Of a DNA stretch of 64,000 nt, positions 12,568 through 31,293 are shown in pieces. Position numbers and translations under genes: made by a program. The notes below the pieces were generated by a model. It worked only from the letters and a program-made list of their open reading frames with translations. It was not told where the DNA came from and did not search any database. How positions within the stretch are numbered: the first letter of the stretch is position 1; the number at the start of each line of letters is the position of its first letter. Source of the DNA: Dehalococcoidia bacterium (lineage in GTDB: Bacteria; Chloroflexota; Dehalococcoidia; GIF9; AB-539-J10); contig JAGGYM010000053.1 of assembly GCA_021162545.1 (NCBI GenBank), forward strand, positions 10,272 to 74,271, in the 5' to 3' direction.

Positions 12568-13086
12568 GTGCTGGTGCCCTTTATCAGAGGAGAGATATCA
12601 CTTAAATTCAGGCGGAGAGAAAACTCTCAGCAAAGGAGTAATGGATGGCAAAAGCAAAACTGTGTCCCTTTTCACACAGGCTCTGCACTGAGTGTCCCTA
12701 CTACAGAGGCAGGCACTTCAAACTGGGCCTGCGCAAGGAAATACGGTGGCTTTCTTGGTAAATCAGACGGGAACACTGCTCCCAGCGGCTCCTATCATTC
12801 TGGCGAGCTCCGGGATTGGAAAGATTGCATCGAGTCATGGAACAACAGTGGCCCTGAGTTGAAAGCTGGCACAGAGGTCAAGTTGAAGGTGATTGATGTT
12901 GATACGAACAGCTTTAGAATTTGCGACCTTGAGGAGGCAAAAACGTGGAACTACGCTAATCCAGGAAAGATAAGAATGATCAAAGGCCTTGAAGTCACCA
13001 GCTGGGATAGACTGATGAAAATTATCTCCCATAAAATTTCCGGAGGGCAGCAGGAGATGATTGAGGTCAATGAAATCCCGTGTTAA
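12568..13086 (+). CDS. hypothetical protein with uncertain start (no in-frame ATG near the 5' end; may start at an internal TTG/GTG)
   Basis: The ORF is given by the track only and I recognise no family. It overlaps a short Cys-rich ORF in another frame (12645..12761). Confidence 0.25.
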   Translation: MLVPFIRGEISLKFRRRENSQQRSNGWQKQNCVPFHTGSALSVPTTEAGTSNWACARKYGGFLGKSDGNTAPSGSYHSGELRDWKDCIESWNNSGPELKAGTEVKLKVIDVDTNSFRICDLEEAKTWNYANPGKIRMIKGLEVTSWDRLMKIISHKISGGQQEMIEVNEIPC

Positions 13087-14680: not shown

Positions 14681-14682
14681 AG

Positions 14683-15162
14683 ATGAAAAGAGAGTTGAAA
14701 ATCACGGTCAACGGTGATCTTTACGAACTTTACGTAGACCCTGGCATGTTACTGGTAGAGGTACTGAGAGACAGGCTGGGGCTGACGGGAACCAAGAGGG
14801 GTTGCAATAGCATGAGTTGTGGTGTCTGCACGGTGATACTGGACGGCAAGGCGGTTAAGTCATGCACCATACTTGCTCTTCAGGCAAACGGCAAGAACGT
14901 TACCACCATCGAAGGCATGGCCAACGGCTCTAAGTTGCACCCAATACAGCAGTCTTTCATTGACCACTGGGCATTCCAGTGCGGATTCTGCACTTCGGGG
15001 CAGATCATGGCAGCCAAAGCACTGCTGGACGAGAATCCCAATCCAACCAGAGAAGAAATCAAGCATACCATGAACGGTCATCTCTGCAGGTGCACCGGAT
15101 ATAACATGATTATCGAAGCGATACTGGATGCAGCAAACAGACTTCAGGAGGAAGTGAAATGA
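14683..15162 (+). CDS. xanthine dehydrogenase-family [2Fe-2S] small subunit (CoxS-like)
   Basis: MKRELKITVNG…GCNSMSCGVCTV… plus a second cluster motif (CGFCTSGQ). An RBS aggagataaag precedes the ATG at 14683. The track ORF starts upstream at 14623, in frame and overlapping the previous gene. Confidence 0.85.
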   Translation: MKRELKITVNGDLYELYVDPGMLLVEVLRDRLGLTGTKRGCNSMSCGVCTVILDGKAVKSCTILALQANGKNVTTIEGMANGSKLHPIQQSFIDHWAFQCGFCTSGQIMAAKALLDENPNPTREEIKHTMNGHLCRCTGYNMIIEAILDAANRLQEEVK

Positions 15163-17444
15163 AACATTATCATGTAATAGAGAAAGATACTCCCAATGTG
15201 GATGGATTTGCCAAGGTCACTGGCCAAGCGGTATATACTTTTGACATGACCATGCCCGGCATGCTTTATGGCAAGATATTGAGAAGTCCTCATCCTCATG
15301 CCAGGATCATCAGCATCGATACCAGCAAGGCTGAAAGCCTGCCCGGCGTTAAGGCAGTCATCACAGCCAAGGAAACGGGAGAGCGGCGGCAAGGTGCCTG
15401 GAGGCGCTACCAAGAGCTTTGCGATGAGCCCGTACTCTGCCTGGAAAAAGTTCGTTATATTGGAGACCCGGTAGCAGCAGTGGCCGCTATTGACGAAGAT
15501 ATTGCCATGGAAGCCCTGGACCTGATCGAGGTGGAATACGAACCGCTGCCTGCGGTGTTTGATCCCCTGGAGTCAATACAAGAGGGTGCGCCCCAGCTTC
15601 ACGATGAGGTAGAAAACAACATAAACGTGACCCGTCATATTGAATGGGGCGATGCGGACAAGGGGTTTGAGGAAGCAGACTTCATCAGGGAAGATGAGTT
15701 CATCTTGCCTGCTCAGAGCCATGTCCCTCTAGAGACGCATGGCTCCCTAGCCAGCTTTGATGGTGGCACCAACAGGTTGACGCTCTGGACTTCCACTCAG
15801 ACCCCCTACTATGTGCAGTGTTTACTGGCAGAGGCCATGGATTTGAGAGAGAACGAGGTGACGGTAATCAAACCTCATTGTGGATCGGGTTTTGGTGGCA
15901 AGAATGAACTGTTCGCCGACCAGTTCTGTGCCGGTTATCTGGCCAGAAAGACGGGTAGGCCAGTAAAGATAGTCTATACCAGGGAAGAAGAGTTTACCTG
16001 TGCGCGGCGCCGGACTCCAATACATTACTATCTCAAGATTGGTGCCAAACGCGACGGTACCTTTGTCGCCAAAGAGGCTAGGGCATTCAGCGATGGGGGA
16101 GCCTATACTTCCATGGGGGCTACTCTCCTTTACCTGACAGGATGGTTCTCAGCCTTCCCCTATTGCTATCCCAACTACAGGTACGATGGATACAAGGTTT
16201 TTACCAATAAGAGCCCGTCGTCTTCCATGCGCGGTTATGGTGGTATCCAGGCAAATTTTTGTGGCGAATCACAAATAGAAATGCTGGCTGCTGATATGGG
16301 GCTTGATCCCGTTGAAATAAGAAAGAAAAATGCCATGTACCCCAACTATGAGGTTCCCGGGCAGGCAACCATAGCGAGCTGCGGTCTGCCCGAAGGCCTT
16401 GAGAAAATAGGTGAATACATCAAGGAGCGCGGCGAATTACCCGAGGATCACGGCATAGGACTGGCTTGCTACGGTTTTAACAGCGGTGGCATCTTCAACT
16501 GGTTCAACACGCCCTATGCTTTTTCAGGAGCCGAGGTGAGAATAAACATCGACGGTATGGTTGACGTTTATTCTCTGGCAGCGGATATAGGTCAGGGTGC
16601 CGACACAACTATGTGCATGATAGCTGCGGAAGAGCTTGGTGTTCACCTTGACGATATCAGGATGCACTCGGGGGATACCAGTATTTGCCCCTCCGACCTC
16701 GGTGCCTGGGCCAGCAGGGAAACCCTGATGATGGGCAACGCCGTTAAGATGGCTGCGGCAGACGCCAAACGGCAGCTCTTCGAAGTGGCGGCATCGAAAA
16801 TGAGCGCGAATATCGTCTACGACCTGGAGGCAGGAGACAGAAGAATTTACCTCAGGGACCGCCCTGAAAGAGGCCTATCGTATTACGACGTCGTCAAGGA
16901 TGCCATAAGAGCCAAGGAAGGAAGTTTAATTGTAGGCAGAGGGCATTACACTCCCCATGGAAAGGGCATGATTTCTCCTGCTTTTAGCTTCGGCGTTCAG
17001 GCAATAGAAGTGAAGGTTGACAGGGAGACGGGGTATGTTAAAATAATGAACGCTTTTACCGCTCATGACTGCGGTCAGGTCATAAACCCTATGGCCGTTC
17101 GGGGACAGGTTGAGGGTTCTATAATGATGGCTGCTGGCTATGCTTATTCTGAGGAGATGCTGTATAGTGAGGGCGAGGTTTTGAACCCCAATCTCGTAGA
17201 TTATAGTCTGATTGGGTTTCGCGATATGCCCAGCGCGGTGACGGTAGATTGCCCGACCCATGAACCAGAAGGGCCTTTTGGAGCTAAGGAAGTGGGGGAA
17301 GGCATTACCTGTCCCACTGCGGGGGCACTGGCAAATGCCGTTTACCATGCCGTTGGCGTGCGGATTACTGATCCGCCGCTGACGCCGGAAAAAATTCTCA
17401 TGGCGTTGAAGAAGAAGGAGACACAAGAAAAATCGCCTAAGTAG
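15159..17444 (+). CDS. xanthine dehydrogenase-family molybdopterin-binding large subunit (aldehyde oxidase/xanthine dehydrogenase a/b hammerhead plus MoCo domains); substrate unknown
   Basis: 761 aa. It carries a GSGFGGK Mo-cofactor motif. The active-site region reads SMRGYGG rather than the CoxL VAYRCSFR/AYRGAGR loops, so it is probably not a true CO dehydrogenase. Confidence 0.85.
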   Translation: MKHYHVIEKDTPNVDGFAKVTGQAVYTFDMTMPGMLYGKILRSPHPHARIISIDTSKAESLPGVKAVITAKETGERRQGAWRRYQELCDEPVLCLEKVRYIGDPVAAVAAIDEDIAMEALDLIEVEYEPLPAVFDPLESIQEGAPQLHDEVENNINVTRHIEWGDADKGFEEADFIREDEFILPAQSHVPLETHGSLASFDGGTNRLTLWTSTQTPYYVQCLLAEAMDLRENEVTVIKPHCGSGFGGKNELFADQFCAGYLARKTGRPVKIVYTREEEFTCARRRTPIHYYLKIGAKRDGTFVAKEARAFSDGGAYTSMGATLLYLTGWFSAFPYCYPNYRYDGYKVFTNKSPSSSMRGYGGIQANFCGESQIEMLAADMGLDPVEIRKKNAMYPNYEVPGQATIASCGLPEGLEKIGEYIKERGELPEDHGIGLACYGFNSGGIFNWFNTPYAFSGAEVRINIDGMVDVYSLAADIGQGADTTMCMIAAEELGVHLDDIRMHSGDTSICPSDLGAWASRETLMMGNAVKMAAADAKRQLFEVAASKMSANIVYDLEAGDRRIYLRDRPERGLSYYDVVKDAIRAKEGSLIVGRGHYTPHGKGMISPAFSFGVQAIEVKVDRETGYVKIMNAFTAHDCGQVINPMAVRGQVEGSIMMAAGYAYSEEMLYSEGEVLNPNLVDYSLIGFRDMPSAVTVDCPTHEPEGPFGAKEVGEGITCPTAGALANAVYHAVGVRITDPPLTPEKILMALKKKETQEKSPK

Positions 17445-17473
17445 AGGCATAAGACAGAGAAGGAGGTTTACTA

Positions 17474-17695
17474 ATGTTTTATCATTGTCCGGTTTGTCAT
17501 AAGGTCTCACCGAATGCCAAGGACCTTGCCCGGCACATAATGGGAACGGGCAACAAAGAGCACCGGGGTTGGATCGAGTCGAAGTGCCTCTCTTTCTCGA
17601 AATTGCTCACCGCGCAAGCCACCAGCTTTGGAGACAAAGGGTATCAGCCCCTGACCGAGCTGCTGGAAAGAGAGGCTGAACGGGATGAAGAATAG
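17474..17695 (+). CDS. small C2H2-like zinc-finger protein (hypothetical)
   Basis: 73 aa with a strong RBS (gaaggagg) 6 nt upstream. The motif is C5-x2-C8-x12-H21-x8-H30 and the C-terminus is acidic. It sits between the Mo-subunit gene and hyuA. Confidence 0.45.
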   Translation: MFYHCPVCHKVSPNAKDLARHIMGTGNKEHRGWIESKCLSFSKLLTAQATSFGDKGYQPLTELLEREAERDEE

Positions 17696-17756
17696 GGAAG
17701 CAGTAAATCTGATGTCAAATAACTTCCCCACCAAGGGAAGGAGCGGAGGTAACTGA

Positions 17757-19817
17757 ATGCGAATAGGAATCGATGTAGGGGGTACTTTCACCGATGTGGT
17801 GCTGGTGGATGACGAAGGAAAGTTTTACTACACCAAGGCTACTACTACTCACTATGATTTAGCCGAAGGCGTACTGAACGGACTGGCTGATATCCTGCAG
17901 ATGTCGGGCAAATCCCTCAAGGAGACAGATACCATCGTCCACGGCACCACCATCGGCACCAATGCCATTGTGGAGGGAAATGGAGCCAGAGCAAGTCTGA
18001 TCACCACAAAGGGATTCGAGGACGTGCTGGAGATCAGGAGAGTGGCGCGCCCCAAAGAGGCCGCTTACGACTTCGAGGTGGACAACCCTCCTCCCCTGGT
18101 GCCGCGCTATTTGAGAAAGGGCATAATTGAACGCACCAATCACAAGGGAGAGGTAGTAATTCCCCTCGATGAAACTTCGGTGCGCCAAGTTGTAGCTTTC
18201 TTTAAAAAAGAGCAGGTGGATGCCATAGTAGTTTCTCTGCTTTTCTCTTTCCTCAACCCCGCTCATGAATTGCGCGTGGCTGAAATATGCCGGGAAATGA
18301 TGCCGGGAATAGATGTTTCCCTTTCGCATGAAATCTGTCCTGAATTTCGAGAGTACGAGCGAACCTGTACCACCGTTATGAACGGTTATCTTGGACCCGT
18401 TATCAGCGAGTACATGGACAATCTGGTTGCCCGTCTCACGAAAAGGTATGGAAAAGTCGACCTCCACATCATGCAGAGCAACGGCGGATCAATGACGGTT
18501 GATATCGCCAAGCACTACTCCGCCAACTTGATTAACTCAGGCCCCGCTGCCGGAGCCATTGCCTCCGCCTTCATCACCAAGCTCATGGGCAGAGACCTGG
18601 CTGTCGGCGCGGATATGGGAGGAACCACCTTTGATATCAGCCTCATCGACGGTGGTATTCCCAGAAGCACTACCTGGGGAGGAGTAACCGAATACCCTAT
18701 CAAGCTTCCCATGGTTGATATGACAACTATTGGCGCCGGTGGAGGTAGTATCGCCTGGATAGATGACATGGGGGCACTCAATGCAGGACCTCAGAGCGCC
18801 GGTTCGCAACCCGGGCCATCCTGCTACGGAACCGGTGGCGAATTGCCCACCATAACCGATGCTAACCTGGTTCTGCACCGACTGGATCCAAAGTATTTCC
18901 TGGGCGGCAGGCAGCAAATATACCCGGAAAAAGCGTATCAGGCCATCAAGGAACATGTAGCTGATAAGCTGGGAATGTCAGTGGAAGAGGCCGCTCTGGG
19001 AATAATCAGAATTGCCAACGCCAACATGGCAAAGGGCATCAGCGGCAGCTCAGTGGAAAGGGGATACGACCTGCGCGACTTCATGTTGATAGCCTTTGGT
19101 GGGGCCTGTTCCCTCCATGCCGTGGAGATAGCCAGGGAATTGCACATACCGGAGGTAGTAGCACCACCCATGTCCGGGCTCTATTCCGCTGTGGGGTTGG
19201 TCGTAGCCGACATACAGCACGATTACGTCAGGACGATGAAGGCGCGTATGGATGAACTCACAGGCCCGGAGATACAGGCCATTTTCCAGGAACTTGAAGA
19301 GAAGGGCATCCAGCAGTTGCGAGAAGAAAAGGTAAAGGAAGAGGACATGGTGCTGGAGTGGTCAGCCGATATGCGCTATGAGGGACAATCATGGGAATTA
19401 AACATTTCTATTGCGCGCACCGATACCGTAGGCCCTCAGGAAATAGCGCAAATAGAGTCTATCTTCCACGAAGAGCATCAAAAGGCATATTCCTATTCCA
19501 ATCCAGGGGAAGTGGTAGAATTTGTTAACTTCCGCGTGAGAGCCAAAGGCAAAGCTACCAAAGCGACTTTGCCCAGTTATCCTGAAGACCCAACTCCCCC
19601 GTCAGCAGCATTGAAGGATCGCAGAGTTGTCTGGTTTGATGAAGGCCCCCTTGAAATTCCCGTCTATGAGAGGGACCTCTTTGGAGTCGGCTCATCAGTA
19701 GATGGCCCCTGTATTATTGAGGAAAGAGTTTCCACGACTCTCGTGCCTGCGGGATGCACCTGTCGCATTGATGCCTTCAAGAACCTGGTGGTTTCCACTG
19801 GAGAAGATGAAGACTAA
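17757..19817 (+). CDS. hyuA: hydantoinase/oxoprolinase family protein, A subunit (HyuA / acetone-carboxylase-beta-like)
   Basis: 686 aa. MRIGIDVGGTFTDVVL is the ASKHA-fold N-terminus typical of N-methylhydantoinase A / 5-oxoprolinase. Confidence 0.85.
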   Translation: MRIGIDVGGTFTDVVLVDDEGKFYYTKATTTHYDLAEGVLNGLADILQMSGKSLKETDTIVHGTTIGTNAIVEGNGARASLITTKGFEDVLEIRRVARPKEAAYDFEVDNPPPLVPRYLRKGIIERTNHKGEVVIPLDETSVRQVVAFFKKEQVDAIVVSLLFSFLNPAHELRVAEICREMMPGIDVSLSHEICPEFREYERTCTTVMNGYLGPVISEYMDNLVARLTKRYGKVDLHIMQSNGGSMTVDIAKHYSANLINSGPAAGAIASAFITKLMGRDLAVGADMGGTTFDISLIDGGIPRSTTWGGVTEYPIKLPMVDMTTIGAGGGSIAWIDDMGALNAGPQSAGSQPGPSCYGTGGELPTITDANLVLHRLDPKYFLGGRQQIYPEKAYQAIKEHVADKLGMSVEEAALGIIRIANANMAKGISGSSVERGYDLRDFMLIAFGGACSLHAVEIARELHIPEVVAPPMSGLYSAVGLVVADIQHDYVRTMKARMDELTGPEIQAIFQELEEKGIQQLREEKVKEEDMVLEWSADMRYEGQSWELNISIARTDTVGPQEIAQIESIFHEEHQKAYSYSNPGEVVEFVNFRVRAKGKATKATLPSYPEDPTPPSAALKDRRVVWFDEGPLEIPVYERDLFGVGSSVDGPCIIEERVSTTLVPAGCTCRIDAFKNLVVSTGEDED

Positions 19818-19851
19818 GCTAAAATGACAGACATAAAAATGGAGGATGACA

Positions 19852-21585
19852 ATGGCTAAATACAAAGCAGATCCGGTTACCATGCAGGTTATTCGCTATG
19901 CGCTCGAGGCAGTGGCGGATGATATGGGGCATGCCCTGCAGCGCATGGGACGAAGCACCATCGTCAAGGAAATCATGGATTTTAACTGTGCCGTCCTTGG
20001 CCGCGAGGGCGACATTCTGGCTCAGGCGCATCTGTGTCCGCTGATGATGTTCAGCTTGCCTCGTACCTGCTATAACATAGTGCAGCATTACCCCGCAGAT
20101 TCCTGGCAGGAAGGCGATGTCATTATGACCAACGATCCCTACTTGGGAGGCCAGCACCTGCTCGATGTGCAGTTTTTCTCTCCGGTAATACACGAGGGCA
20201 AACACGTGGGCTTTGTGGCCAACATTTGTCACCAGCTGGATATGGGAGGAGCGGTCCCCGGAGGTGTAGCCGGAGGGCTCACCGAGATATATCAGGAAGG
20301 TCTGCGCATTCCCTTCGTTAAGATTCTCAAGGGGGGAAAAGAAGACGAAGAACTTTTCTCCCTTGTTGGACGGAACATTCGTATCCCGGAGAAGACCCTG
20401 TCTGACTTCAGGGCTCAAATTGCCACTACTGCAGTGGGGGTAAACAGGGTGAAAGAGGTCATAGATAAGTATGGATTGGATATCTTCCAGCAAAGCACTC
20501 AAATGCTGATAGATTACAGCGAGAAGCGAATCCGACGCTTCATCAGCGAACTCCCCGACGGTGACTACACCGGAGAAGACTGGCTGGACGATGATGGGCA
20601 CAGTGACGACCCCATTAGACTCCAGGTCAATGTACATGTACAGGGCGACACCATGAAGGTCGATTTTAAAGGTACTGCCAAGCAGGTTAAAGGCAATATC
20701 AATTGTCCCTGGTCCTGCAGCGAAGGAGCCGTGTTCTATACCGCAGTGGGCTTAATAGACCCCTATATGCCCATAAACGCCGGCTGTTTTCGCCCCATTG
20801 AAGTAACACCCGATGAGGGACTCATCACCTGTCCACTCCCGCCAGGAGCAGTCACCGCGCGCAGCCAGACGATGACCAAGATCACCGAGGCCATGCTCAG
20901 AGCCGTAGCTCCAATCCTGCCCAGTAAAGTTGTTTCAGGAAGTCATGGTCAGGCCACTACTTGCAGCTTCGCGGGAATTCATCCCGAGACGGGCAGGCCT
21001 TTTGGCTACATAGAAATCCAGGGGGGAGGCTGCGGTGCCAGGCCAGACAAGGATGGAGCTGATGGCCAGGACTTACACCTGGGACGGTTCATGAACACCC
21101 CGGTAGAGGCGGTGGAGATGGAATATCCCGTTACTATCGAGCGATACGGGTTCATTCCCGATTCAGCGGGGGCAGGAAGATGGAGGGGAGGCCTCAGCAT
21201 GCGCCGGGACATCCGCTTCCACGCAGATGTTACCTTCGCCAGGTACTCCGACAGACGCAAGTTTGCTCCTCAGGGAATCTTCGGGGGCAAAGAAGGAATC
21301 AAGGGTGACATGGTGCTCAACCCCGGCACTGATAAAGAAGAGCACCCCGAATCCAAGGGTGTCAGCGAGATAAAGGCGGGAGACCTTCTCAGCCTTCGCC
21401 TGCCCGGCAGCGGTGGCTATGGCCCCCCCTGGAAGCGAGAAGCCTCCAAAGTTCGCTGGGACGTGCTTAACGGCAAGATCAGCGCCGAATCAGCCAGGGA
21501 CAATTATCTGGTAGTCCTTAATCCTGATATCACGGTCAATGAGGAGAAGACGAAAGCCCTGCGAGACAGAGCTTCAGTTAAATAG
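19852..21585 (+). CDS. hyuB: hydantoinase B/oxoprolinase family protein (HyuB)
   Basis: 577 aa from the Met at 19852, which has a GGAGG RBS 6 nt upstream. DPVTMQVIRYAL…NDPYLGGQHL is the HyuB signature. Confidence 0.85.
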   Translation: MAKYKADPVTMQVIRYALEAVADDMGHALQRMGRSTIVKEIMDFNCAVLGREGDILAQAHLCPLMMFSLPRTCYNIVQHYPADSWQEGDVIMTNDPYLGGQHLLDVQFFSPVIHEGKHVGFVANICHQLDMGGAVPGGVAGGLTEIYQEGLRIPFVKILKGGKEDEELFSLVGRNIRIPEKTLSDFRAQIATTAVGVNRVKEVIDKYGLDIFQQSTQMLIDYSEKRIRRFISELPDGDYTGEDWLDDDGHSDDPIRLQVNVHVQGDTMKVDFKGTAKQVKGNINCPWSCSEGAVFYTAVGLIDPYMPINAGCFRPIEVTPDEGLITCPLPPGAVTARSQTMTKITEAMLRAVAPILPSKVVSGSHGQATTCSFAGIHPETGRPFGYIEIQGGGCGARPDKDGADGQDLHLGRFMNTPVEAVEMEYPVTIERYGFIPDSAGAGRWRGGLSMRRDIRFHADVTFARYSDRRKFAPQGIFGGKEGIKGDMVLNPGTDKEEHPESKGVSEIKAGDLLSLRLPGSGGYGPPWKREASKVRWDVLNGKISAESARDNYLVVLNPDITVNEEKTKALRDRASVK

Positions 21586-21702
21586 AATTGACTTCGCCCC
21601 AAGTGGTATACTGACCCTGTTCTGAGAAACAAAGTCAGAGAAACTAAAAGCCCAGGAGAGTGCTTGAAATAGAGGGCTCTCTTGGTTTGTGTAACTGATG
21701 TT

Positions 21703-23955
21703 ATGAATGACGAAATTGAAACCAAAAGAGCTCTTTGTTTTGCCTGTTCCGGGCTGGCAGGAGTTGAAGCTACCGTCAAAGATGGCAGGGTAGTAAAACT
21801 CAGTGGCGAGCCGGACCACTTCATGAACAAGGGATGGCTTTGTGACAGGTCCCGGGCATTCATGGAACATCTTTATCATCCCGACCGCCTGAATTACCCC
21901 TTGAAAAGAGCCGGCCGCAGAGGAGAAAACAAGTGGGAGAGGATTTCCTGGGACCAGGCCCTGGATGAAATAGCCAAAAAGCTAAAAGAGATAAAAGCGG
22001 ATTACGGAGCCGAGGCCCTGGCCAGCGTCTGTGGCACCGGCAGGGGACACCAGCAAATAATAAAAGAGAGGTTCATGAACCTCTTCGGCAGCCCCAACAG
22101 TGCCAATGCAGGGCAGTGGTGTGCCATTTATAACTACATGCTTGAGGCAGCAATCTATGGAGGGGCTACAAGGGGGAAATCGGGCCTTGGCGTTGGCAAG
22201 TGTCTCGTGTTGTGGGGAAAGGAACCGGCAGAATCTCAGGCATGCACCTTCCGAAACCTGCTGGAGCTGAAACGTGCTGGCACCAAGTTTATTGTCATTG
22301 ACCCGAAGCTTTCGCTGAGCGTGGATAAGCTCGCCGATGTATGGCTGCAGATTAGACCCGGCACGGATGCCGCTCTGGCACTGGGCTGGTTAAACGTCAT
22401 CATAGCAGAAGAACTCTACGACAAGGAATTCGTGGACAAATGGTGTTACGGCTTTGACCAGCTGAAGGAAAGGGTGAAGGAGTATCCCCCTGAGAAGGTA
22501 GCCGAGATAACCTGGATTCCCGAAGAAAAAATAGTGGAGGCGGCGCGTTTATATGCCACCAGCAAACCGGCATCTATCCAGTGGGGAGTAAAAGGAGGAG
22601 ATATGGAGGGGGTGAACGCCTCCTCAATGATGCACGCCAAGTGCATCCTGCGCGCCATTACCGGCAACCTCGACGTTCCGGGAGGTGACATAATCCAGGG
22701 GCCATGCGAGAAGGCCAACTATGGCCCCATCTTTGAATGCCTGGACATGATTCCACCGAAGCAGAGAGCCAAGCAGCTGGGCGCTGATAAGTACCGGGCG
22801 TGGACCTGGCCGGGCTATGAAATTATCTACGAAGCGGGCAAGCGCTACTGGTACGGGAAAGGTTGTTTTGGCGGTTATGCTCCTGCCTGCGACTTCCCCA
22901 GCTTGTGGCGAGCCATAATCACGGGCAAGCCATACCCGGTGAAGGCCTTGATATGCGGAGGGCACAATCCCCTCCTGGCCAATGCCAATACGCACATCGT
23001 CTACAAAGCACTCAAGAGTCCCAACCTCGAGCTAACTGTGGTTCTGGAGCAGTGGATGACGCCCAGCGCCATGCTGGCCGACTACGTCTTTCCCGTTGCC
23101 AACTGGTTGGAAAAGCCCGTTGTATCTATGCATACCAGCCAGGGCATGGGAAACTATGTTTCCATCGGGGAGAAGGTGGTAGAACCTCTCTACGATCGTA
23201 AGCCCGATCACTATTTCTACCGGGAACTTGGCTTGAGGCTCGGTCAGGAGAAGTACTGGTGCGACACGCTTGAAGACGAGTTCACCTGGCTGCTTGAGCC
23301 CCTGCTGGATGAATTGGGCTACGATTCCGCCATGGAATTTGCCAGGAAAGAGAGGTGGTGGCATCCACCTTTTGTGGAAAAGCGGTATGAAAAGATAAAT
23401 CCCAAGACGGGGAAGCAATGGGGTTTCGCCACGCCCACGGGAAAAGCCGAAGTTTATTCCACCTGGTTTGAGCAGCTTGGCTATGACCCCCTGCCTCATT
23501 ACGAAGAGCCGCCCGAAACGCCGGTAAGCAACCCTGAACTGGCCAAAGAATATCCCCTTATCCTCATGACGGGTATGCGGTTCAGGGCCATGCACCATTC
23601 AGAACACAGACAGATTTCCTCTTTACGGAGGCTGCAACCTTACCCCACAACCAGGATCCATCCTGATACGGCTCGAGAGCTCGGGATAAAAGATGGCGAC
23701 TGGGTTTTTATCGAGACCGTCAGGGGAAGAATCAAACAAAAGGCCTCTCTTTATGCTGGCATAAATCCAAAGGTAGTTGAGATTCAGCACGGCTGGTGGT
23801 TCCCGGAGAAAAAAGCGGAGGACCCCTCGTTGTTCGGGGTCTTCGAGTCCAACGCCAACGTGTTAACCGAAGACGATGAAAAACATCGAGATGCTCCGTC
23901 GGGGGCAGTAGCTTTTGTTCCTTACCTGTGCAAGGTTTACCCGGCAAATGAGTAA
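21703..23955 (+). CDS. molybdopterin/tungstopterin oxidoreductase, DMSO-reductase (MopB) family catalytic subunit; cytoplasmic (no Tat signal); alternative start at 21682
   Basis: About 750 aa. It has an N-terminal MopB Fe-S region, MGD-binding domains and a C-terminal molybdopterin dinucleotide-binding beta-barrel (…HGWWFPE…). The N-terminal motif reads C-x2-C-x3-A-x27-C, so the third Cys is replaced by Ala. Confidence 0.8.
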   Translation: MNDEIETKRALCFACSGLAGVEATVKDGRVVKLSGEPDHFMNKGWLCDRSRAFMEHLYHPDRLNYPLKRAGRRGENKWERISWDQALDEIAKKLKEIKADYGAEALASVCGTGRGHQQIIKERFMNLFGSPNSANAGQWCAIYNYMLEAAIYGGATRGKSGLGVGKCLVLWGKEPAESQACTFRNLLELKRAGTKFIVIDPKLSLSVDKLADVWLQIRPGTDAALALGWLNVIIAEELYDKEFVDKWCYGFDQLKERVKEYPPEKVAEITWIPEEKIVEAARLYATSKPASIQWGVKGGDMEGVNASSMMHAKCILRAITGNLDVPGGDIIQGPCEKANYGPIFECLDMIPPKQRAKQLGADKYRAWTWPGYEIIYEAGKRYWYGKGCFGGYAPACDFPSLWRAIITGKPYPVKALICGGHNPLLANANTHIVYKALKSPNLELTVVLEQWMTPSAMLADYVFPVANWLEKPVVSMHTSQGMGNYVSIGEKVVEPLYDRKPDHYFYRELGLRLGQEKYWCDTLEDEFTWLLEPLLDELGYDSAMEFARKERWWHPPFVEKRYEKINPKTGKQWGFATPTGKAEVYSTWFEQLGYDPLPHYEEPPETPVSNPELAKEYPLILMTGMRFRAMHHSEHRQISSLRRLQPYPTTRIHPDTARELGIKDGDWVFIETVRGRIKQKASLYAGINPKVVEIQHGWWFPEKKAEDPSLFGVFESNANVLTEDDEKHRDAPSGAVAFVPYLCKVYPANE

Positions 23956-23981
23956 GAGGAGCTGCACGTTACATTCGAGAT

Positions 23982-24623
23982 ATGGCTAAAGTGCATCTGG
24001 CCATCGATGGAGTGGACGTTGAGGTTGACCAAGGCACCACCATACTGGAAGCAGCTCGAGAAGCGGGCATTTATATCCCCACCCTGTGCTTTCATCCCGA
24101 TTTGCCGCTATCGCTAGCTGTGTGCCGCCTGTGCGTTGTTGAGGCTACAGAGGCGGAATCGCGGTTCCCCAGCTCGTGTGTCACCCCGGTTGCATGGGGG
24201 ATGATAGTTCGCACGGATACGCCAGCTGTCAAAGAGATCCGGCGGCACTTCTTCAAAGCCATTTTCTCTCCACTGCCAAGCCCCAGGCTCAACATGCCGG
24301 AGTTGAAGAAGCTCGCGGACTACATAGGTGTAGGGGAGGAGGATTTCCCCCCTTATGTTTTCAAGAACCTTCCCGTTGACCGCGACCAGCCGCTTCTCGA
24401 ACTGGACCACAACCGCTGTATCCTTTGCGAATTATGTATCAGGGCATGTAAAAAGGAACTGGGGGGAACCGGGGCAATAGACTTCGACTACAGGGGAGGG
24501 AGATGGATGGTAGTTCCTTTTCCTTCACCATCGCTCAAGGAAAACGGCTGCAGATTTTGTGGCCTCTGCGTGGAAGTGTGCCCCACGGGCGCGCTGAGAT
24601 ATAAGAAAGGTGAGAGTAATTGA
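23982..24623 (+). CDS. NuoG/HoxU-N-terminal-like iron-sulfur protein (2Fe-2S ferredoxin fold, a His/Cys3 [4Fe-4S] and a [4Fe-4S]), standalone copy
   Basis: 213 aa with CFHPDLPLSLAVCRLC (2Fe-2S), HNRCILCELCIRAC and CRFCGLCVEVCPTG. It is about 93% nucleotide-identical to the 5' 640 bp of the next gene. Confidence 0.75.
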   Translation: MAKVHLAIDGVDVEVDQGTTILEAAREAGIYIPTLCFHPDLPLSLAVCRLCVVEATEAESRFPSSCVTPVAWGMIVRTDTPAVKEIRRHFFKAIFSPLPSPRLNMPELKKLADYIGVGEEDFPPYVFKNLPVDRDQPLLELDHNRCILCELCIRACKKELGGTGAIDFDYRGGRWMVVPFPSPSLKENGCRFCGLCVEVCPTGALRYKKGESN

Positions 24624-25283
24624 TCACAGGAGGCAAAGAATATGGGTAAATTGCATCTGGCCATCGATGGCGTGGACGTTGAGGTTGATCAAGGCACCAC
24701 CATACTGGAAGCAGCTCGAGGAGCGGGCATTTATATTCCCACCCTGTGCTTTCATCCTGATTTGCCACTATCGCTAGCTGTCTGCCGCCTGTGCGTTGTT
24801 GAAGCTACGGAGGCGGAATCACGGTTCCCCAGTTCGTGTGTCACCCCGGTTGCACGGGGGATGATAGTTCGCACAAATACGCCAGCAGTCAGAGAGCTCC
24901 GGCGGCATTTCTTCAAGGCCCTGCTCACTCCACTGCCGAGCCCCAGGCTCAATATGCCGGGGTTGAAAAAGCTCGCGGACTACATAGGCGTAGAAGAGGG
25001 GGATTTCCCCCCTTATGTCTCCAGAAACCTTCCCGTTGACCGCGACCAGCCGCTTTTCGAACTGGACCACAACCGCTGTATCCTCTGCGGGCTATGCATA
25101 AGAGCATGCAAGGAACTGCGTGGTGTAGGGGCAATAGACTTCAGTCTCAAGGGCGAGAGCTGGACGGCAGGCCCCTTTCCCTCTCCATCGCTCAAGGAAA
25201 ACGGCTGCAGATTTTGTGGCCTCTGCGTGGAAGCGTGCCCTACAGGTGCACTGACGGACAGAGATGGAGGATGGGTCGACCGC
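23982..25283 (+). repeat. tandem direct duplication (~640 bp units at 23982..24623 and 24642..25283, ~93% nt identity)
   Basis: I aligned the two units by eye. The first 280 nt of each differ at about 20 positions and both keep an open frame with the same Cys motifs. Confidence 0.8.
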
Positions 25284-26759
25284 GACAAGCCACAGGCCCC
25301 CTGTACCCAGGCCTGTCCTGCGGGAGTTGACGTGCCGCGATACGTTTGGCTCATAGGACAGCGGAGATTCGATGACGCAGCGGCAGTTATCAGGGAAGAG
25401 GTTACTTTTCCCGGAGTTTTAGGTCGGGTATGCCCTCATCCCTGCGAAGAAAAGTGCCAGCGCGCCGCGCTAACCGAGCCCATCGCAATAGCGGCTTTGA
25501 AACGCACTGCTGCAGAGCAAAGCGTCAGCTGGCACCAAAATTTGCCGGCGGTTGTTGCCACCGGCAAAAAAATTGCCATCGTGGGCTCAGGCCCATGCGG
25601 TCTTACCGCCGGTTACCATCTGGCGCGCAAAGGCCACTCCGTGACCGTGTTTGAGGAGACGCTGGAACCGGGCGGCATGATGCGGTTGTGCATTCCGTCC
25701 TACCGTCTGCCCCGGCACATACTGGCGCAGGAAATAGAAGAGATCAAAAGAGCGGGGGTCGCCATAAAAACGGGCGCGAAAGTGGAATCGGTGAGCAAAC
25801 TCTTTCAGCAGGGGTACAATGCTGTCCTGCTTGCCACCGGAGCTCACCAGTCGCTCAAGCTGGGCATAGAAGGTGAAAACGGTCCCGGTGTGATGAACGG
25901 CGTTGCTTTCTTAAAAGACGCAAACCTGGGAAAAGTGCGCCACATTGAGGGATGGATAGCGGTCGTTGGTGGAGGAAATGCTGCCATAGATTCTGCACGA
26001 GTGGCCTTGCGGATGGGAGCTCAGAGGGTAACCATCCTCTACAGGCGCTCCCGTACAGAGATGCCAGCAGATGTCGAGCAGGTGGAAGCGGCACTGGAAG
26101 AGGGGATTGAAATCGAATTTCTCACTGCTCCCACGAAGATACTCAGAAAAGGCGGCAGCCTCCAGGTCGAATGCATCCGGATGAAGCTGGGAGAGAAAGA
26201 TGCCAGCGGGAGACAGCGGCCCCTTCCCATCGAAGGGAGCGAGCGCGTTCTTGAGTTTGACACTCTCCTTGCAGCCATCGGAGAAACTGCTGAAAGTTCC
26301 TTCATTGGAGAAAACGACTCCGTGCAAATTGGCAATACGGGGTTGATCGCAGTTGATGAGAGTGGCGTGACAACTGATATGCCGGGCGTTTATGCGGCAG
26401 GCGATGCAGTCAGCGGCCCATCTACCGTTATCGAGGCCATCGCTATGGGGAAGAAAGCCGCCGCATCCATCGATAAATACCTCGGTGGAGATGGAGATAT
26501 AAGCGAAAATCTAATTGAGCCGGCAGTGCCCAATTTACGGGCGGAACCCGTAGAGGACTTCGCTGACCTGAATCGCGTTCGAAAACCCTGTCTGCCAGTC
26601 GAGCAACGAATGATTCTCGCTCCAGATGGAACTTTCCCCGAGGTAGAGCTTGGATTTACTGGAGCCATGGCGTCCGAAGAAGCAAGCCGATGCTTGCAAT
26701 GCCAGCTAAGGTTCAGCATTTCTCCTGTTGTGCCTCTGCCAGCAAAACAGGCGCGTTAA
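24642..26759 (+). CDS. fusion protein: NuoG-N-terminal-like Fe-S module plus 2x[4Fe-4S] plus GltD-like NAD(P)H-dependent FAD oxidoreductase
   Basis: 705 aa. The first ~200 aa are near-identical to the preceding ORF. Then comes a dinucleotide-binding GltD-like domain (KIAIVGSGPCGLTAGYHLA…AAGDAVSGPSTVIEAIAMG). Confidence 0.8.
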   Translation: MGKLHLAIDGVDVEVDQGTTILEAARGAGIYIPTLCFHPDLPLSLAVCRLCVVEATEAESRFPSSCVTPVARGMIVRTNTPAVRELRRHFFKALLTPLPSPRLNMPGLKKLADYIGVEEGDFPPYVSRNLPVDRDQPLFELDHNRCILCGLCIRACKELRGVGAIDFSLKGESWTAGPFPSPSLKENGCRFCGLCVEACPTGALTDRDGGWVDRDKPQAPCTQACPAGVDVPRYVWLIGQRRFDDAAAVIREEVTFPGVLGRVCPHPCEEKCQRAALTEPIAIAALKRTAAEQSVSWHQNLPAVVATGKKIAIVGSGPCGLTAGYHLARKGHSVTVFEETLEPGGMMRLCIPSYRLPRHILAQEIEEIKRAGVAIKTGAKVESVSKLFQQGYNAVLLATGAHQSLKLGIEGENGPGVMNGVAFLKDANLGKVRHIEGWIAVVGGGNAAIDSARVALRMGAQRVTILYRRSRTEMPADVEQVEAALEEGIEIEFLTAPTKILRKGGSLQVECIRMKLGEKDASGRQRPLPIEGSERVLEFDTLLAAIGETAESSFIGENDSVQIGNTGLIAVDESGVTTDMPGVYAAGDAVSGPSTVIEAIAMGKKAAASIDKYLGGDGDISENLIEPAVPNLRAEPVEDFADLNRVRKPCLPVEQRMILAPDGTFPEVELGFTGAMASEEASRCLQCQLRFSISPVVPLPAKQAR

Positions 26760-26769
26760 GGAGGATACG

Positions 26770-27750
26770 ATGTTTTCCAGCGAAGTAGTCATCAACGAAG
26801 AACGATGTCGTGGATGTGGATATTGTGTGCAATTTTGCCCTCGAGAATGTCTGGAACTGGACAGGGACAAGATCGGCCCCCTGGGATGTGCCCTGCCCGT
26901 TTTGACCAAAGCTGAGCAATGCAATACTTGTGGGGTTTGTGCCAGAATGTGTCCCCACTGGGCAATAGAGGTTTTCGCAACTCTAAAGATTCCGGAGGAA
27001 GCTCCCATCAGGGAAAAAATTGCAGGCTTACCAAAGTTGATGCCTTCTCCACCTCTGGCAAACTGTGCCGGATGTCAGCATCCAACGGTGGGCAGGCTCA
27101 TTGCCGGAGTTATAGCTGAACTGGGGCTCCGCGATAAGTTCGTCGCTCTCGATGGCATAAGCTGTGGAGGTTCATCAGTGTTAAGCATGGATTTCGGGCA
27201 GGTAGTGGGCATATATGACGACCCGATCGAGATGGCTCTGGCGGCCAAGCGCGCCCATCCCGATAAAGTCGTACTCGCTTTACTGAACAGCCCGAAGTTC
27301 GATATCATCGGCTACGATTCTTTGATGAGGGCGCTGACTTCGTCTGAAAAGATTACGATCATTAACTGTAATGACCCTCTCTATGGCCCGTGGCCGGCAA
27401 AGTGGCGCGTGGCCACTCCGGTGAGCTGCGTTCCTGATCCTGCTGCCGGGGAATTGACTGTAAGCAAATATCATGTACCGATGGCTGAAATGGCAGCAAC
27501 GTTCGACGGAGTTGCCTACAGCGCCCGTGGCGCTTTTACCTCGCTGGATGATTATGAGCACACAAAAAGCTATCTCAGAACTGCCATTCAAAAGCAGGTG
27601 CATAATGCCGGTTTTAGTTTTGTGGACGTTCTTTGCGCATGCATGGTTTTATCATATGAGAATCCCGTGGATTGTTTGCGGTGGATCAAAGAGGAGATGG
27701 TTGCTAAACTCCCTCTGGGCATATACAAGAACACCGATCGCGAGAGATAA
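26770..27750 (+). CDS. 2x[4Fe-4S] ferredoxin domain fused to a 2-oxoacid:ferredoxin-oxidoreductase beta-subunit-like (TPP-fold) domain; function unknown
   Basis: There is an RBS aggaggatacg before the ATG at 26770. The N-terminus reads CRGCGYCVQFCP…CNTCGVCARMCP. A CAGCQHP motif sits where OFOR beta subunits carry CPGCGH. No clear GDG TPP motif was seen. The track ORF starts at 26728. Confidence 0.5.
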   Translation: MFSSEVVINEERCRGCGYCVQFCPRECLELDRDKIGPLGCALPVLTKAEQCNTCGVCARMCPHWAIEVFATLKIPEEAPIREKIAGLPKLMPSPPLANCAGCQHPTVGRLIAGVIAELGLRDKFVALDGISCGGSSVLSMDFGQVVGIYDDPIEMALAAKRAHPDKVVLALLNSPKFDIIGYDSLMRALTSSEKITIINCNDPLYGPWPAKWRVATPVSCVPDPAAGELTVSKYHVPMAEMAATFDGVAYSARGAFTSLDDYEHTKSYLRTAIQKQVHNAGFSFVDVLCACMVLSYENPVDCLRWIKEEMVAKLPLGIYKNTDRER

Positions 27751-27755
27751 TGAGC

Positions 27756-28706
27756 TCATACCCGGATATGTGGAGCAAGAGACCTCAACGCTCGCGCTAG
27801 ATCCTCCGGCAACGAGCACCTGAATTCCTGGTATTCATCGTTACGTGGGAGACGGAAGCCCAGATAGTGAGCATGAACAAACTGTCTCTTCAGAAACGGC
27901 ACTCTCGCGCCATAAACAGGGTCGCCTGCTACCGGATAGCCGATAGCTTTCAGGTGCACCCGTATCTGGTGAGTGCGTCCTGTCAAAGTAGCCACTTCTA
28001 TTAAGGTGTAGCCCTCCAGATATTCCTCGACTTCGTACCTGGAGATGGCTTCCTTTCCCGTTTCAACTATCGCCATTTGCCTGCGGTGATGGGGATCTCT
28101 GCCTATAGGCGCCTCAATTATCCCCCGGACAGGCGACAGCCTGCCCTTCACCAGAACGAGATACCCTTTACTTACGGTGCGGTCCTTGAACTGGCCTGCG
28201 AGATACCTGCGAGCGAAGTCGTTCTTGGCTATCACGATAAGCCCTGAAGTATCCTTATCCAGCCTGTGAACTATGCCGGAGCGCATGGGGTCATCGCCCG
28301 TATCTATGTGAGGACAATAGGATAGAATGGCATTGACCAGCGTATGCGCGGGGTGCCCCGGGGATGGGTGAGTAATCAGTCCGGGGGGCTTGTCAAGGAC
28401 CAGGATATCTTCATCTTCGTAAACCATGCTCAGAGGTATCTTCTCAGGTGAAGGGCGCTCCGGCAGAACCGGGAGCATGATGGTTATCCTGTCAGTTTCC
28501 TTCAATTTCAGGCTCGCTTTCGCCTTCTGTTCGTTAACCAGAACGCAGTCCTGCTCAACGAATTTCTTTATGCCGGAGCGGGAAAATTGTGGTAAAGTCT
28601 GCACCAGGTATTTATCCAGACGGCTACCCGCCATGGTCGGATCGACCTGGAGCGTCTCAACTTTCATCCCCACGTCCATGTTCATGCATCTTGCTGAAGA
28701 AGCCAT
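27756..28706 (-). CDS. rluD: 23S rRNA pseudouridine synthase, RluA family (RluD-like); the true start is probably the internal Met near 28667
   Basis: It has an S4 domain (LDKYLVQTLPQFSRSGIKKFV) and the catalytic motif HRLDKDTSGLIVIAKN. Confidence 0.88.
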   Translation of the reverse strand: MASSARCMNMDVGMKVETLQVDPTMAGSRLDKYLVQTLPQFSRSGIKKFVEQDCVLVNEQKAKASLKLKETDRITIMLPVLPERPSPEKIPLSMVYEDEDILVLDKPPGLITHPSPGHPAHTLVNAILSYCPHIDTGDDPMRSGIVHRLDKDTSGLIVIAKNDFARRYLAGQFKDRTVSKGYLVLVKGRLSPVRGIIEAPIGRDPHHRRQMAIVETGKEAISRYEVEEYLEGYTLIEVATLTGRTHQIRVHLKAIGYPVAGDPVYGARVPFLKRQFVHAHYLGFRLPRNDEYQEFRCSLPEDLARALRSLAPHIRV

Positions 28707-29166
28707 CTCGAATCAGCGATATAATAAATGCCAAGATGCCTACAACTACGGCAGAATCGGCAAAATTGAAGGCAGGCCAGATAAAGACGTCCTGTATGTG
28801 AAACTCAATAAAGTCGGTTACGCTGCCAGAGCAGAGACGGTCTATCAGGTTCCCTATAGCACCTCCCAGTATCAAGCTGACGGACACTATACTCAGAGTT
28901 GTAACAGGAGACAGGTACCTGAGAATTAGCACTATTACCACCAGGCTGATTACGCTGACTGCAATAAGAAAGAGAGTCTGGTTGGCAAATAATCCAAAGG
29001 CAGCTCCAGAATTCTCAACATGAACTAAGTTGAGCCATCCCGGCAACAGCTCTATTTGTGGTGAATTTGCTCGGACCCAGAGCTTGCTCAGTTGATCGAG
29101 AAGAACCACCAGGAAAACCACCAGCAAGGATAAAGCAACTTTCCTCTTATCTTGTACCCTTCGCAT
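28657..29166 (-). CDS. lspA: lipoprotein signal peptidase (signal peptidase II)
   Basis: 169 aa, four TM segments, conserved NSGAAFG and FNFAD motifs. Confidence 0.88.
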   Translation of the reverse strand: MRRVQDKRKVALSLLVVFLVVLLDQLSKLWVRANSPQIELLPGWLNLVHVENSGAAFGLFANQTLFLIAVSVISLVVIVLILRYLSPVTTLSIVSVSLILGGAIGNLIDRLCSGSVTDFIEFHIQDVFIWPAFNFADSAVVVGILAFIISLIRDGFFSKMHEHGRGDES

Positions 29167-29515
29167 CCTTTGTCTGGCTCGCTTTGCACTTCAAACATAA
29201 GCTTGCTTGAGGTAGCGCCTCAAGGCGAGCCTGCTCTATAGGTTGACCACAGGCGTCACATAATCCATAAGTGCCTGCTTCATATTTTTGTAAGGCATGC
29301 TCTATGCTGGCAAGCGAAACCCTTGCCCTTTCTTCTTGAGCTATTCTCCTCTCCATTTCCAGTGCACCATCCGCCTCTTCCTCCCTCTTGCCAAAGGGAC
29401 TGCCATCTCTCCTCTCTGACATCGACGATGCATCCGCTTCCAGCTGATCCAGCTTTACCAGTATTTGCCTCTCCTCTTGCTTCAGTCTCTCATAAAGTTC
29501 ACTTGATTTGGCCAC
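29147..29515 (-). CDS. DksA/TraR-family C4-type zinc-finger protein
   Basis: A coiled-coil N-terminus, then CDACGQPI…CLKC. Confidence 0.75.
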   Translation of the reverse strand: MAKSSELYERLKQEERQILVKLDQLEADASSMSERRDGSPFGKREEEADGALEMERRIAQEERARVSLASIEHALQKYEAGTYGLCDACGQPIEQARLEALPQASLCLKCKASQTKDAKGTR

Positions 29516-29609
29516 TTCATGCCCTCCTCCAATCCAGTATTGCTACGTATCGCGTAACTGCGCTAAAAACTCAAAATTTCCAAGGGAAAATGCCAGTTGA
29601 GATAGAGGA

Positions 29610-31202: not shown

Positions 31203-31293
31203 CTTGATCCTCCGTGTAGCGCAGTTCCGGCCTTTCCTCTCACGCCAGAAAAGAAGCCGGGCAGAAGCAGTATTTTACCGCCTCATATCTAAT

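Follow-up and report, generated by a model that had tools for sequence, protein, structure and literature searches.

Genes at the locus

The stretch of DNA analysed here, called the window, covers 64,000 nucleotides of a contig from a Dehalococcoidia bacterium (JAGGYM010000053.1, assembly GCA_021162545.1, positions 10,272 to 74,271 of the forward strand). It carries a gene for a catalytic subunit of the MopB superfamily of molybdenum and tungsten enzymes, with a three-subunit enzyme of the xanthine dehydrogenase (XDH) family and a hydantoinase-type pair encoded upstream and three redox genes downstream (Table 1). In its N-terminal iron-sulfur site, FS0, the third cysteine is replaced by alanine (Ala19), and all the relatives that share the replacement have acquired another cysteine, Cys181, in a different domain.

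The MopB reading frame translates without interruption into 750 amino acids, starting with MNDEIETKRALCFACSGLAGVEATVKDGRVVKLSGEPDHFMNKGWLCDRS, and the ATG at 21703 agrees with the N-termini of the homologues. Pfam recognized Molybdop_Fe4S4 (PF04879, residues 7-59), Molybdopterin (PF00384, E 1.4e-35) and Molydop_binding (PF01568, E 2.7e-19), the first of them still being detected despite Ala19 (33.4 bits against a cutoff of 22.7). The Molybdopterin and MGD-binding beta-barrel domains and the four-domain fold make the protein a member of the MopB superfamily. Its best sequence match in the PDB was acetylene hydratase (AH, 2e7z), with a HMMER E value of 8.5e-141 over residues 8-731 and about 38-40% identity, followed by PsrA (2vpw, E 1.4e-67) and then by formate dehydrogenases. 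An AlphaFold2 model built with 73 homologues as input (pLDDT 94.3, pTM 0.93) matched some 50 MopB structures at probability 1.00 in Foldseek, with 2E7Z at the top (TM 0.91/0.94, rmsd 2.2 A) and PsrA second (TM 0.81). An earlier reading of the same DNA, made from the letters alone (the sequence-only reading), had likened its architecture with partners to SfrAB or NAD-dependent formate dehydrogenases; the closest relative of the protein is AH and neither of these. None of the NCBIfam equivalog cutoffs was reached, the best scores being those of PhsA (300 bits, cutoff 694) and the formate dehydrogenase alpha subunit (286 bits, cutoff 666). The names formate dehydrogenase, PsrA/PhsA, DmsA, Nap, Arr and other equivalogs were rejected, with scores far under the curated cutoffs.

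The enzyme is cytoplasmic, as had been proposed before, because there is no twin-arginine leader at the N-terminus and the cysteine motif already begins at residue 12. With AH as its nearest solved and characterized relative, a cytoplasmic location and a conserved Cys metal ligand (see below), the protein is a cytoplasmic Mo- or W-bis(pyranopterin guanine dinucleotide) (bisPGD) enzyme of the AH-like branch of the MopB superfamily. It is an AH-like MopB protein with a rewired FS0 and not a categorically new one. Apart from AH itself, this subfamily was described as biochemically uncharacterized in a 2025 review (PMC12096430), and we found no literature on the clade described here, or on any link between AH and hydantoinases.

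The FS0 motif

In almost every Mo/W-bisPGD enzyme, FS0 serves as the electron gate. The motif of the window protein begins within KRALC12FAC15SGLA19GVEA and is completed by GWLC47DRS, the codons being TGT for Cys12 (21736-38), Cys15 (21745-47) and Cys47 (21841-43) and GCA for Ala19 (21757-21759), which differs from TGY at all three codon positions. HMMER (against 2e7z) and MAFFT (111 sequences) give one and the same register, with C12/C15/A19/C47 on Cys9/12/16/46 of AH, so the motif is not offset. The only cysteines in residues 1-109 are C12, C15 and C47, and since none lies between residues 47 and 110 there is no nearby one able to complete the motif. Of the canonical four-cysteine motif, which is typical of MopB proteins but not universal, three cysteines are present and the third position is Ala19. 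The sequence-only reading had described this canonical spacing, C-x2-C-x3-A-x27-C, with alanine for the third cysteine, and the translation, both alignments and all 58 protein clusters mentioned below bear it out; the offset it had considered, with a different cysteine completing the cluster, appeared with neither alignment method.

Homologues were searched in 5.8 billion proteins, 120 of the matches were listed, and the protein counts given here are among these. In 185,579 species genomes we found 80 loci; with metagenome contigs added, 37 loci belonged to the clade of the window protein (clade A), to be compared with 51 others. Among the 58 clade-A clusters with a readable N-terminus (61-100% identity to the window protein), position 19 is Ala in 51 and Gly in the remaining 7, and it is Cys in 50 of 50 aligned sequences outside the clade, from 59% identity downward. 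At the level of loci it is Ala or Gly in 37/37 and Cys in 50/51, the exception (L089) being unaligned there. All four Ala codons (GCC, GCT, GCG, GCA) and all four Gly codons are in use at this position over the 37 loci. C12, C15 and C47 are invariant in the clade over about 40% sequence divergence, in bacteria as well as archaea. On comparative sequence evidence, the replacement of the third cysteine by a small residue is genuine, conserved and clade-defining.

The hosts of clade A are Dehalococcoidia and other Chloroflexota, Desulfobacterales/Thermodesulfobacteriota (including the Olavius Delta1 symbiont) and archaea of the Candidatus Hecatellales. A neighbour-joining tree showed the clade as monophyletic, with one subclade having Ser at position 16, to which the window protein belongs, and another having Trp; the sister group combines Trp16 with Cys19. 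We also searched a representative library of 1.84 billion proteins, from which 150 family representatives were used for a census of FS0 motifs. The AH-like subfamily as a whole comprises about 2,000 sequences at E below 1e-30. In this library clade A forms a single 50%-identity cluster, so the Ala19/Cys181 pair has no independent replicates; an independent recurrence of the pair was sought among the representatives and none was found, other FS0 variants being what turned up. One sister-clade protein that keeps Cys19 (P0066, locus L091) has CoA-transferase, SDR, UbiD-decarboxylase and creatinase-like genes as neighbours. The same locus also holds an AhtL-like (transhydroxylase-type) MopB gene and its Fe-S subunit, a context of anaerobic aromatic degradation.

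A cysteine gained on the same branch

When alignment columns were scanned for residues near-invariant in clade A and rare outside it, the only cysteine gained was Cys181. It is present in 59/59 clade-A proteins, in none of the six from the sister clade (Val or Leu) and in none of the 44 remaining ones (mostly Pro); by independent locus the figures are 37/37 inside and 0/51 outside. Its codons are both TGC and TGT, and the synonymous codon turnover at positions 19 and 181 indicates purifying selection on both. On the neighbour-joining tree the loss of Cys19 and the gain of Cys181 map to one branch, the base of clade A.

In the model, Cys181 opens the first helix in domain III, which follows strand 167-171, and it comes directly after Ala180, the equivalent of Trp179 in AH. 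The crystal structure of AH has the Trp179 side chain hydrogen-bonded to Asp13, the residue beside the cluster ligand Cys12 (PMC7970554), so the segment of Cys181 is expected to pack against the FS0 loop. The restriction of position 19 to Ala or Gly is consistent with space for an incoming thiolate. Two other cysteines, Cys335 and Cys396, were considered as compensating ligands and rejected, both being already present in the sister clade that keeps Cys19. A column scan of domain I for a clade-specific non-Cys ligand (Asp, Glu, His or Ser) gave only T24, E36 and W45, none of them convincing. The options named in the sequence-only reading were a lost cluster, an altered one or a non-Cys ligand; the replacement on which they were based stands, and a relocated cysteine, which was not among them, has become the leading explanation.

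The census of FS0 motifs indicates that the AH-like subfamily is unusually plastic at this site. Six 50%-identity representatives lack the first cysteine (P0189, P0213, P0220, P0238, P0245 and P0251, with the pattern [A/I/V]-W-S-x-P-G-C-H), and all six have an additional cysteine three residues past the fourth (C-x-R-C), where 24/24 relatives that keep the first cysteine have a single one. Here a ligand seems to have been relocated a second time, independently, and the parallel raises our confidence in the relocation to Cys181.

Metal ligand and substrate pocket

Residue equivalences with AH take account of the numbering of PDB chain 2E7Z, which is shifted by 3 residues. The Mo/W ligand, which the sequence-only reading had left unassigned, is predicted to be Cys140. 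This residue aligns with Cys141 of AH and with the Cys of PsrA and FdhF, and it is conserved in 59/59 proteins of clade A and in 50/51 others. The basic residue after the fourth FS0 cysteine, Lys48 in AH, is Arg49 here; all 59 clade-A proteins have Arg at this position, and every other protein has either Arg or Lys. At the position of the catalytic Asp13 of AH, clade A has Ser in 9 proteins and Trp in 49, and never Asp. We take the ring that forms the acetylene pocket in 2E7Z to be Ile14, Ile113, Ile142, Trp179, Trp293 and Trp472. The corresponding residues in the window protein are Gly17, Thr112, Ala141, Ala180, Trp294 and Gln480, so that one of the six is kept. Three of the Trp residues of the ring are named in PMC7970554, and Asp13 is both essential for and characteristic of AH (PMC12096430). 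Judging from these alignments the protein is AH-like in fold and ancestry and is not an acetylene hydratase (EC 4.2.1.112), because Asp13 has become Ser16, five of the six pocket residues have changed and Cys16 is replaced by Ala.

Gene neighbourhood in the window

Table 1. Features of the MopB gene and of its neighbours, in window coordinates
Feature	Coordinates	Strand	Evidence
AH-like MopB (Mo/W-bisPGD) catalytic subunit gene	21703..23955	+	Pfam, PDB sequence match, AlphaFold2 model, Foldseek
FS0 motif C12-x2-C15-x3-A19-x27-C47	21736..21843	+	translation; aligned to AH Cys9/12/16/46
Ser16, at the position of AH catalytic Asp13	21748..21750	+	MAFFT alignment
Arg49, at the position of AH Lys48, basic residue after fourth FS0 Cys	21847..21849	+	alignment
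Cys140, predicted Mo/W ligand	22120..22122	+	aligned to AH Cys141
Cys181, clade-specific Cys, candidate relocated FS0 ligand	22243..22245	+	column scan and locus comparison
CoxG-like protein	13139-13690	+	
Three-subunit XDH-family molybdoenzyme (FAD, 2Fe-2S and Mo subunits)	13748-17444	+	
Hydantoinase/oxoprolinase-family A and B subunits, caprolactamase-like	17757..21585	+	Pfam Hydantoinase_A/B
HoxU/NuoG-N-terminal-like Fe-S protein (2Fe-2S + 4Fe-4S), 213 aa	23982..24623	+	Fer2_4, Fer4_Nqo3, Fer4_7; NCBIfam HoxU 1e-41
HoxU-like Fe-S and GltD/NfnB-type NAD(P)H-FAD fusion, 705 aa	24642..26759	+	Fer2_4, Fer4_Nqo3, Fer4_20, Pyr_redox_2
2x[4Fe-4S] ferredoxin domain and 2-oxoacid:ferredoxin-oxidoreductase-beta-like domain	26770..27750	+	Pfam/NCBIfam

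Upstream of the MopB gene, the Mo (alpha) subunit of the XDH-type enzyme is most like the alpha subunit of 4-hydroxybenzoyl-CoA reductase, with a score below cutoff, and the hydantoinase-type subunits score 622 bits against CapA and 304 bits against CapB, both under the cutoff. At the head of the XDH-type cluster, an open reading frame of 172 residues (12568-13086) has no Pfam match. Downstream, the HoxU-like gene begins 26 bp after the MopB gene and the gene of the flavoprotein fusion 18 bp after the HoxU-like one. The fusion scores 524 bits with NCBIfam PRK12814, and the best PDB matches of its GltD-type domain are NfnB-like modules fused to MopB-like domains (9bov_A, 8oh5_C) and NfnA/NfnB. 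The 213-residue HoxU-like protein duplicates the N-terminus of the protein encoded next, as a tandem copy that has diverged (84% amino acid identity to residues 1-210; about 85-90% nucleotide identity between 23982-24623 and 24642-25280). At the 82%-identical locus L011 the fused gene is the only one, so this stand-alone copy is specific to the window lineage. The ferredoxin-like reading frame opens at a TTG (26728), with a 32-bp overlap with the previous gene, and the ATG at 26770, behind AAGGAGG, is the probable start. The C-terminal domain of this protein weakly resembles the beta subunit of 2-oxoacid:ferredoxin oxidoreductase (E ~7e-9). Housekeeping genes on the opposite strand follow, and a scan for promoters and terminators gave no usable operon boundaries.

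Elsewhere in the window, and outside the MopB cluster, a pair that looks like NfnAB (8913-11184, minus strand) combines a GltD-like protein of 468 residues (Fer4_20 and Pyr_redox_2) with a PyrK-like one of 283 (DHODB_Fe-S_bind), a separate NADPH/ferredoxin module. A complete bacterial 16S rRNA gene (46759-48274, 1484 bits) has no adjoining 23S gene. Unlinked rRNA genes are typical of Dehalococcoidia, in agreement with the closest MopB loci coming from metagenome-assembled genomes (MAGs) of this class. Genes for tRNA-Arg and tRNA-His lie at 51269-51425 on the minus strand.

Neighbours across clade A

The redox genes recur, in part, and only within the closest group. Loci L007, L008 and L011 belong to this group, with MopB identities of at least 71%. 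Orthologues of the flavoprotein lie directly 3' of the MopB gene at L008 (59%) and L011 (57%), and those of the ferredoxin-like protein are found downstream at L007 (57%) and L011 (60%). At three further Chloroflexota loci (L005, L006 and L035; Chloroflexota MAG045) the region 15159-34781 of the window is syntenic on both flanks, with the XDH Mo subunit at 73% identity, HydA at 85%, HydB at 87% and RluD, LspA, DksA, PEPCK and DnaK at 61-84%. Here the MopB gene runs straight into rluD without redox genes, and its product is of the Trp16 type, 68% identical to the window protein. This combination indicates that the redox module was gained or lost together with the change of MopB subtype.

Over 32 non-redundant clade-A loci, the most frequent neighbours were hydantoinase A (10/32) and B (9/32), followed by TRAP transporter genes (7-8/32) and the XDH Mo subunit (7/32), and the GltD-type flavoprotein is missing beside most of the MopB genes. 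The NAD(P)H-linked Fe-S flavoprotein partners proposed in the sequence-only reading are thus present in the window, at the spacings given above, and at L008 and L011, and do not hold as a trait of the family. As for the SfrAB-like or formate dehydrogenase-like architecture proposed with them, the inventory of domains is there, with the HoxU/NuoG-like domain on the flavoprotein and not on MopB.

Corrinoid proteins occur beside the MopB gene at 6/32 loci, together with methyltransferases of the MtaA/URO-D or MttB type. Corrinoid or methyltransferase neighbours were seen at L007 (58-2327), at L009/L010 (1158-3100) and at L018, L021, L027, L030 and L034, and they hint that the enzyme may be tied to methylated-compound metabolism. 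Directly upstream of the MopB gene at six Desulfobacterales loci, and overlapping its start, lies a gene of the reductive dehalogenase (RDH) family (TIGR02486, 214 bits against a cutoff of 160). At L003 it encodes 399 amino acids (8805-10004) with a C-terminal 2x[4Fe-4S] domain, with equivalents at L020, L028, L029, L033 and L042. This pairing of an RDH-like with an AH-like gene is unreported.

Fate of the cluster

Our preferred explanation is that FS0 is kept and that Cys181 is its relocated ligand; from the sequence comparisons we give this about an even chance. At the base of the clade the third FS0 cysteine would have changed to Ala or Gly and, at the same node, Cys181 would have arisen next to the equivalent of a residue that contacts the FS0 loop. 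The [4Fe-4S] cluster would then be held by Cys12, Cys15, Cys47 and, as relocated fourth ligand, Cys181, and would still relay electrons, in one direction or the other, between the pterin and external partners. In the window lineage these partners would be the HoxU-like Fe-S protein, the HoxU-GltD NAD(P)H flavoprotein and the ferredoxin-like protein, encoded by three tightly linked genes, and with them the enzyme would function there as an oxidoreductase linked to NAD(P)(H).

We infer that the cluster is retained because Cys12, Cys15, Cys47 and Arg49 are invariant in a clade that spans about 40% divergence and two domains of life. The two largely decayed FS0 motifs among the 150 family representatives (P0221 with 0/4 cysteines and P0234 with 1/4) point the same way, since these relatives lost several cysteines together, unlike clade A. 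Mutations of the FS0 Cys ligands in NarG block the insertion of both FS0 and the Mo cofactor (reviewed in PMC10609526), and a 2011 paper in the reference list of that review states in its title that the Mo cofactor can be inserted into E. coli DmsABC only if FS0 has been correctly assembled; losing a ligand without compensation would therefore be costly. Retention is also argued by the genes for Fe-S partners that adjoin many clade members, namely the GltD fusion (window, L008, L011), the ferredoxin-like protein (window, L007, L011) and the RDH-family Fe-S/B12 protein (six Desulfobacterales loci).

Several points weigh against the relocation of the ligand to Cys181. That this residue reaches the iron site is something we infer, and the loss of Cys19 and gain of Cys181 amount to one evolutionary event in one 50%-identity cluster, so that they could coincide by chance. 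Cys181 adjoins the counterpart of AH Trp179, an active-site position, and could have a catalytic role instead. In one representative of the AH type (P0140), a Cys close to position 181 accompanies all four canonical cysteines. The sole characterized member of the family is a non-redox enzyme, and most clade members, including those at the syntenic loci L005 and L035, have no adjacent NAD(P)H module. Finally, other representatives have Ser for the second cysteine (C-x2-S-x3-C; P0079, P0086, P0122 and P0134) or Asp for the third (CPFCPNQDG; P0240) and no compensating Cys. These variants indicate that ligand sets other than four cysteines are tolerated, which keeps alive the possibility of a cluster on three.

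Such a three-cysteine cluster, either [3Fe-4S] or a [4Fe-4S] with water, hydroxide or some other non-protein ligand on its fourth iron, is possible, although we hold it for clearly less probable than the relocation; Cys181 would be an unrelated residue, structural or of the active site, and its arrival on the same branch a matter of chance. It would fit the three invariant cysteines and a position 19 that never carries a ligating residue, as well as the non-canonical FS0 sets of other AH-like lineages and the place of Cys181 next to the equivalent of the active-site Trp179. In E. coli DmsA, a Cys substitution reportedly gave a [3Fe-4S] signal (Trieber and coworkers, 1996). There is a precedent for a [3Fe-4S] FS0 on three cysteines within MopB, in AioA and IdrA (PMC10100899), but the AioA type misses the fourth cysteine, not the third, and works in a very different, periplasmic and high-potential context. 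It also counts against a three-cysteine cluster that the loss of Cys19 and the gain of Cys181 coincide exactly, that position 19 tolerates only Ala or Gly, and that elsewhere in the subfamily the first cysteine has been lost in parallel with the gain of C-x-R-C. Loss of the cluster altogether, leaving a catalyst that works with its cofactor alone like DorA, TorA and BisC and cysteines that are structural or vestigial, appears unlikely. Cluster-less MopB enzymes do exist (PMC10100899), the AH reaction is itself non-redox (PMC12096430) and many clade members have no obvious redox partner beside them. However, C12, C15 and C47 have stayed invariant through the divergence of the clade in bacteria and archaea, Arg49 is conserved, Pfam still recognizes the Fe4S4 domain, the relatives with a decayed FS0 (P0221, P0234) dropped three or four cysteines together, and Fe-S partner genes are adjacent in several lineages.

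The FS0 loop forms part of the active-site wall in AH, where Asp13 follows Cys12, and the substrate channel lies between domains I, II and III. It is conceivable, if improbable to a still higher degree than loss of the cluster, that clade A has a three-Cys [4Fe-4S] cluster in which the iron left without a cysteine is an open site, acting together with the Mo/W-pterin as a Lewis acid or in substrate binding in the manner of aconitase or IspH, with Cys181 as an active-site thiol. If true, Mo/W and the [4Fe-4S] cluster would together form a heterobimetallic catalytic site, undescribed in the MopB superfamily. An artefact (a sequencing or assembly error, a pseudogene, or an offset motif completed by another N-terminal cysteine) has practically no probability left and is, by the comparative sequence data, already refuted. 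The 750-residue reading frame is intact with full-length homology, GCA is three bases away from TGY, and Ala or Gly recurs, with eight codons, across independent assemblies (58 protein clusters, 37 loci); residues 1-109 hold no further Cys and the two alignment methods concur on the register.

Returning to the enzyme with a relocated FS0 ligand, the exchange of the hydrophobic acetylene pocket for small or polar residues implies a larger, polar organic substrate. This substrate probably falls within the pathway of the neighbouring XDH-type hydroxylase and the ATP-dependent hydantoinase/lactamase-type enzyme. Our reading of the sequences is that the protein would work in the cytoplasm as an oxidoreductase for a polar organic substrate, as part of a catabolic pathway. 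To name candidates from the gene context (an N-heterocycle or lactam pathway, methylated amines or organohalide-like compounds) is speculation. If the Cys181 and C-x-R-C swaps are true, they would show that the ligand set of FS0 is evolutionarily movable. The clade is a natural system for asking what FS0 does in the AH-like subfamily, whose one characterized member is non-redox. It also represents an uncharacterized enzyme that subsurface Dehalococcoidia and marine Desulfobacterales repeatedly encode within catabolic gene clusters, in the company of XDH-, hydantoinase-, corrinoid- and RDH-type genes. Such proteins are exposed to mislabelling by annotation pipelines that require the four-cysteine motif or pass on names like "acetylene hydratase", "thiosulfate reductase" or "selenocysteine-containing dehydrogenase".

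Comparison with known systems

The nearest known system by sequence and fold is AH of Pelobacter (Syntrophotalea) acetylenica. Both proteins are cytoplasmic, have the four-domain MopB layout, a Cys metal ligand at the same position (Cys141 in AH, Cys140 here) and an Fe4S4 domain with equal spacing. The window protein differs in having Ala for Cys16, Ser for Asp13, Arg for Lys48 and the clade-specific Cys181. Besides, AH is a stand-alone monomer that catalyses a non-redox reaction (PMC12096430), whereas the window protein is encoded beside genes for redox partners. PsrA/PhsA, the second-best family by sequence and fold, also has a Cys metal ligand, but PsrA is exported by the Tat system, has a four-Cys FS0 and works with PsrB and PsrC.

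SfrAB of Geobacter and the NAD(P)-dependent formate dehydrogenases offer the closest parallel in gene content, a cytoplasmic combination of MopB, NuoG/HoxU-like Fe-S and GltD/NfnB-type NAD(P)H-FAD modules. An NAD(P)H flavoprotein is encoded with MopB in the window and at L008 and L011, as far as the genes tell. In the window, however, it is the flavoprotein that carries the HoxU-like domain, the MopB subunit resembles AH, and the partnership is limited to the closest relatives. Neither does the protein look like the catalytic subunit of a formate dehydrogenase, as the NuoG-like N-terminal extension is missing, with the FS0 motif at residue 12, and the Cys/Sec-His pair of these enzymes (Cys-His in FdhF of HDCR) is Cys140-Ala141. 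The cluster-less DorA/TorA/BisC type, with no Cys motif and a Ser ligand, does not apply to a protein with three invariant cysteines and a Cys ligand.

In AioA the missing FS0 cysteine is the fourth one, replaced by Ser. AioA and IdrA are catalytic subunits of MopB enzymes with three Cys ligands to the N-terminal cluster (PMC10100899), and the window protein likewise has three cysteines in its motif; they are unlike it in having no amino-acid ligand to Mo, a periplasmic location, a Rieske partner and a high-potential cluster. The window protein has its Cys ligand, scores only 44 bits with NCBIfam arsenite_ox_L and has no Rieske gene among its neighbours in the window, so it is not of this type. 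Non-canonical ligand sets are known from the FS0 of NarG, with His and three Cys beside the Mo/W-pterin (PMC10609526), and from ASOR and WOR5 of the AOR/WOR family, with three Cys and Asp (PMC12096430). In these enzymes the substitute ligand is found at the position of the replaced cysteine, whereas in clade A that position carries a non-ligating Ala or Gly and the candidate ligand lies about 160 residues off, in another domain.

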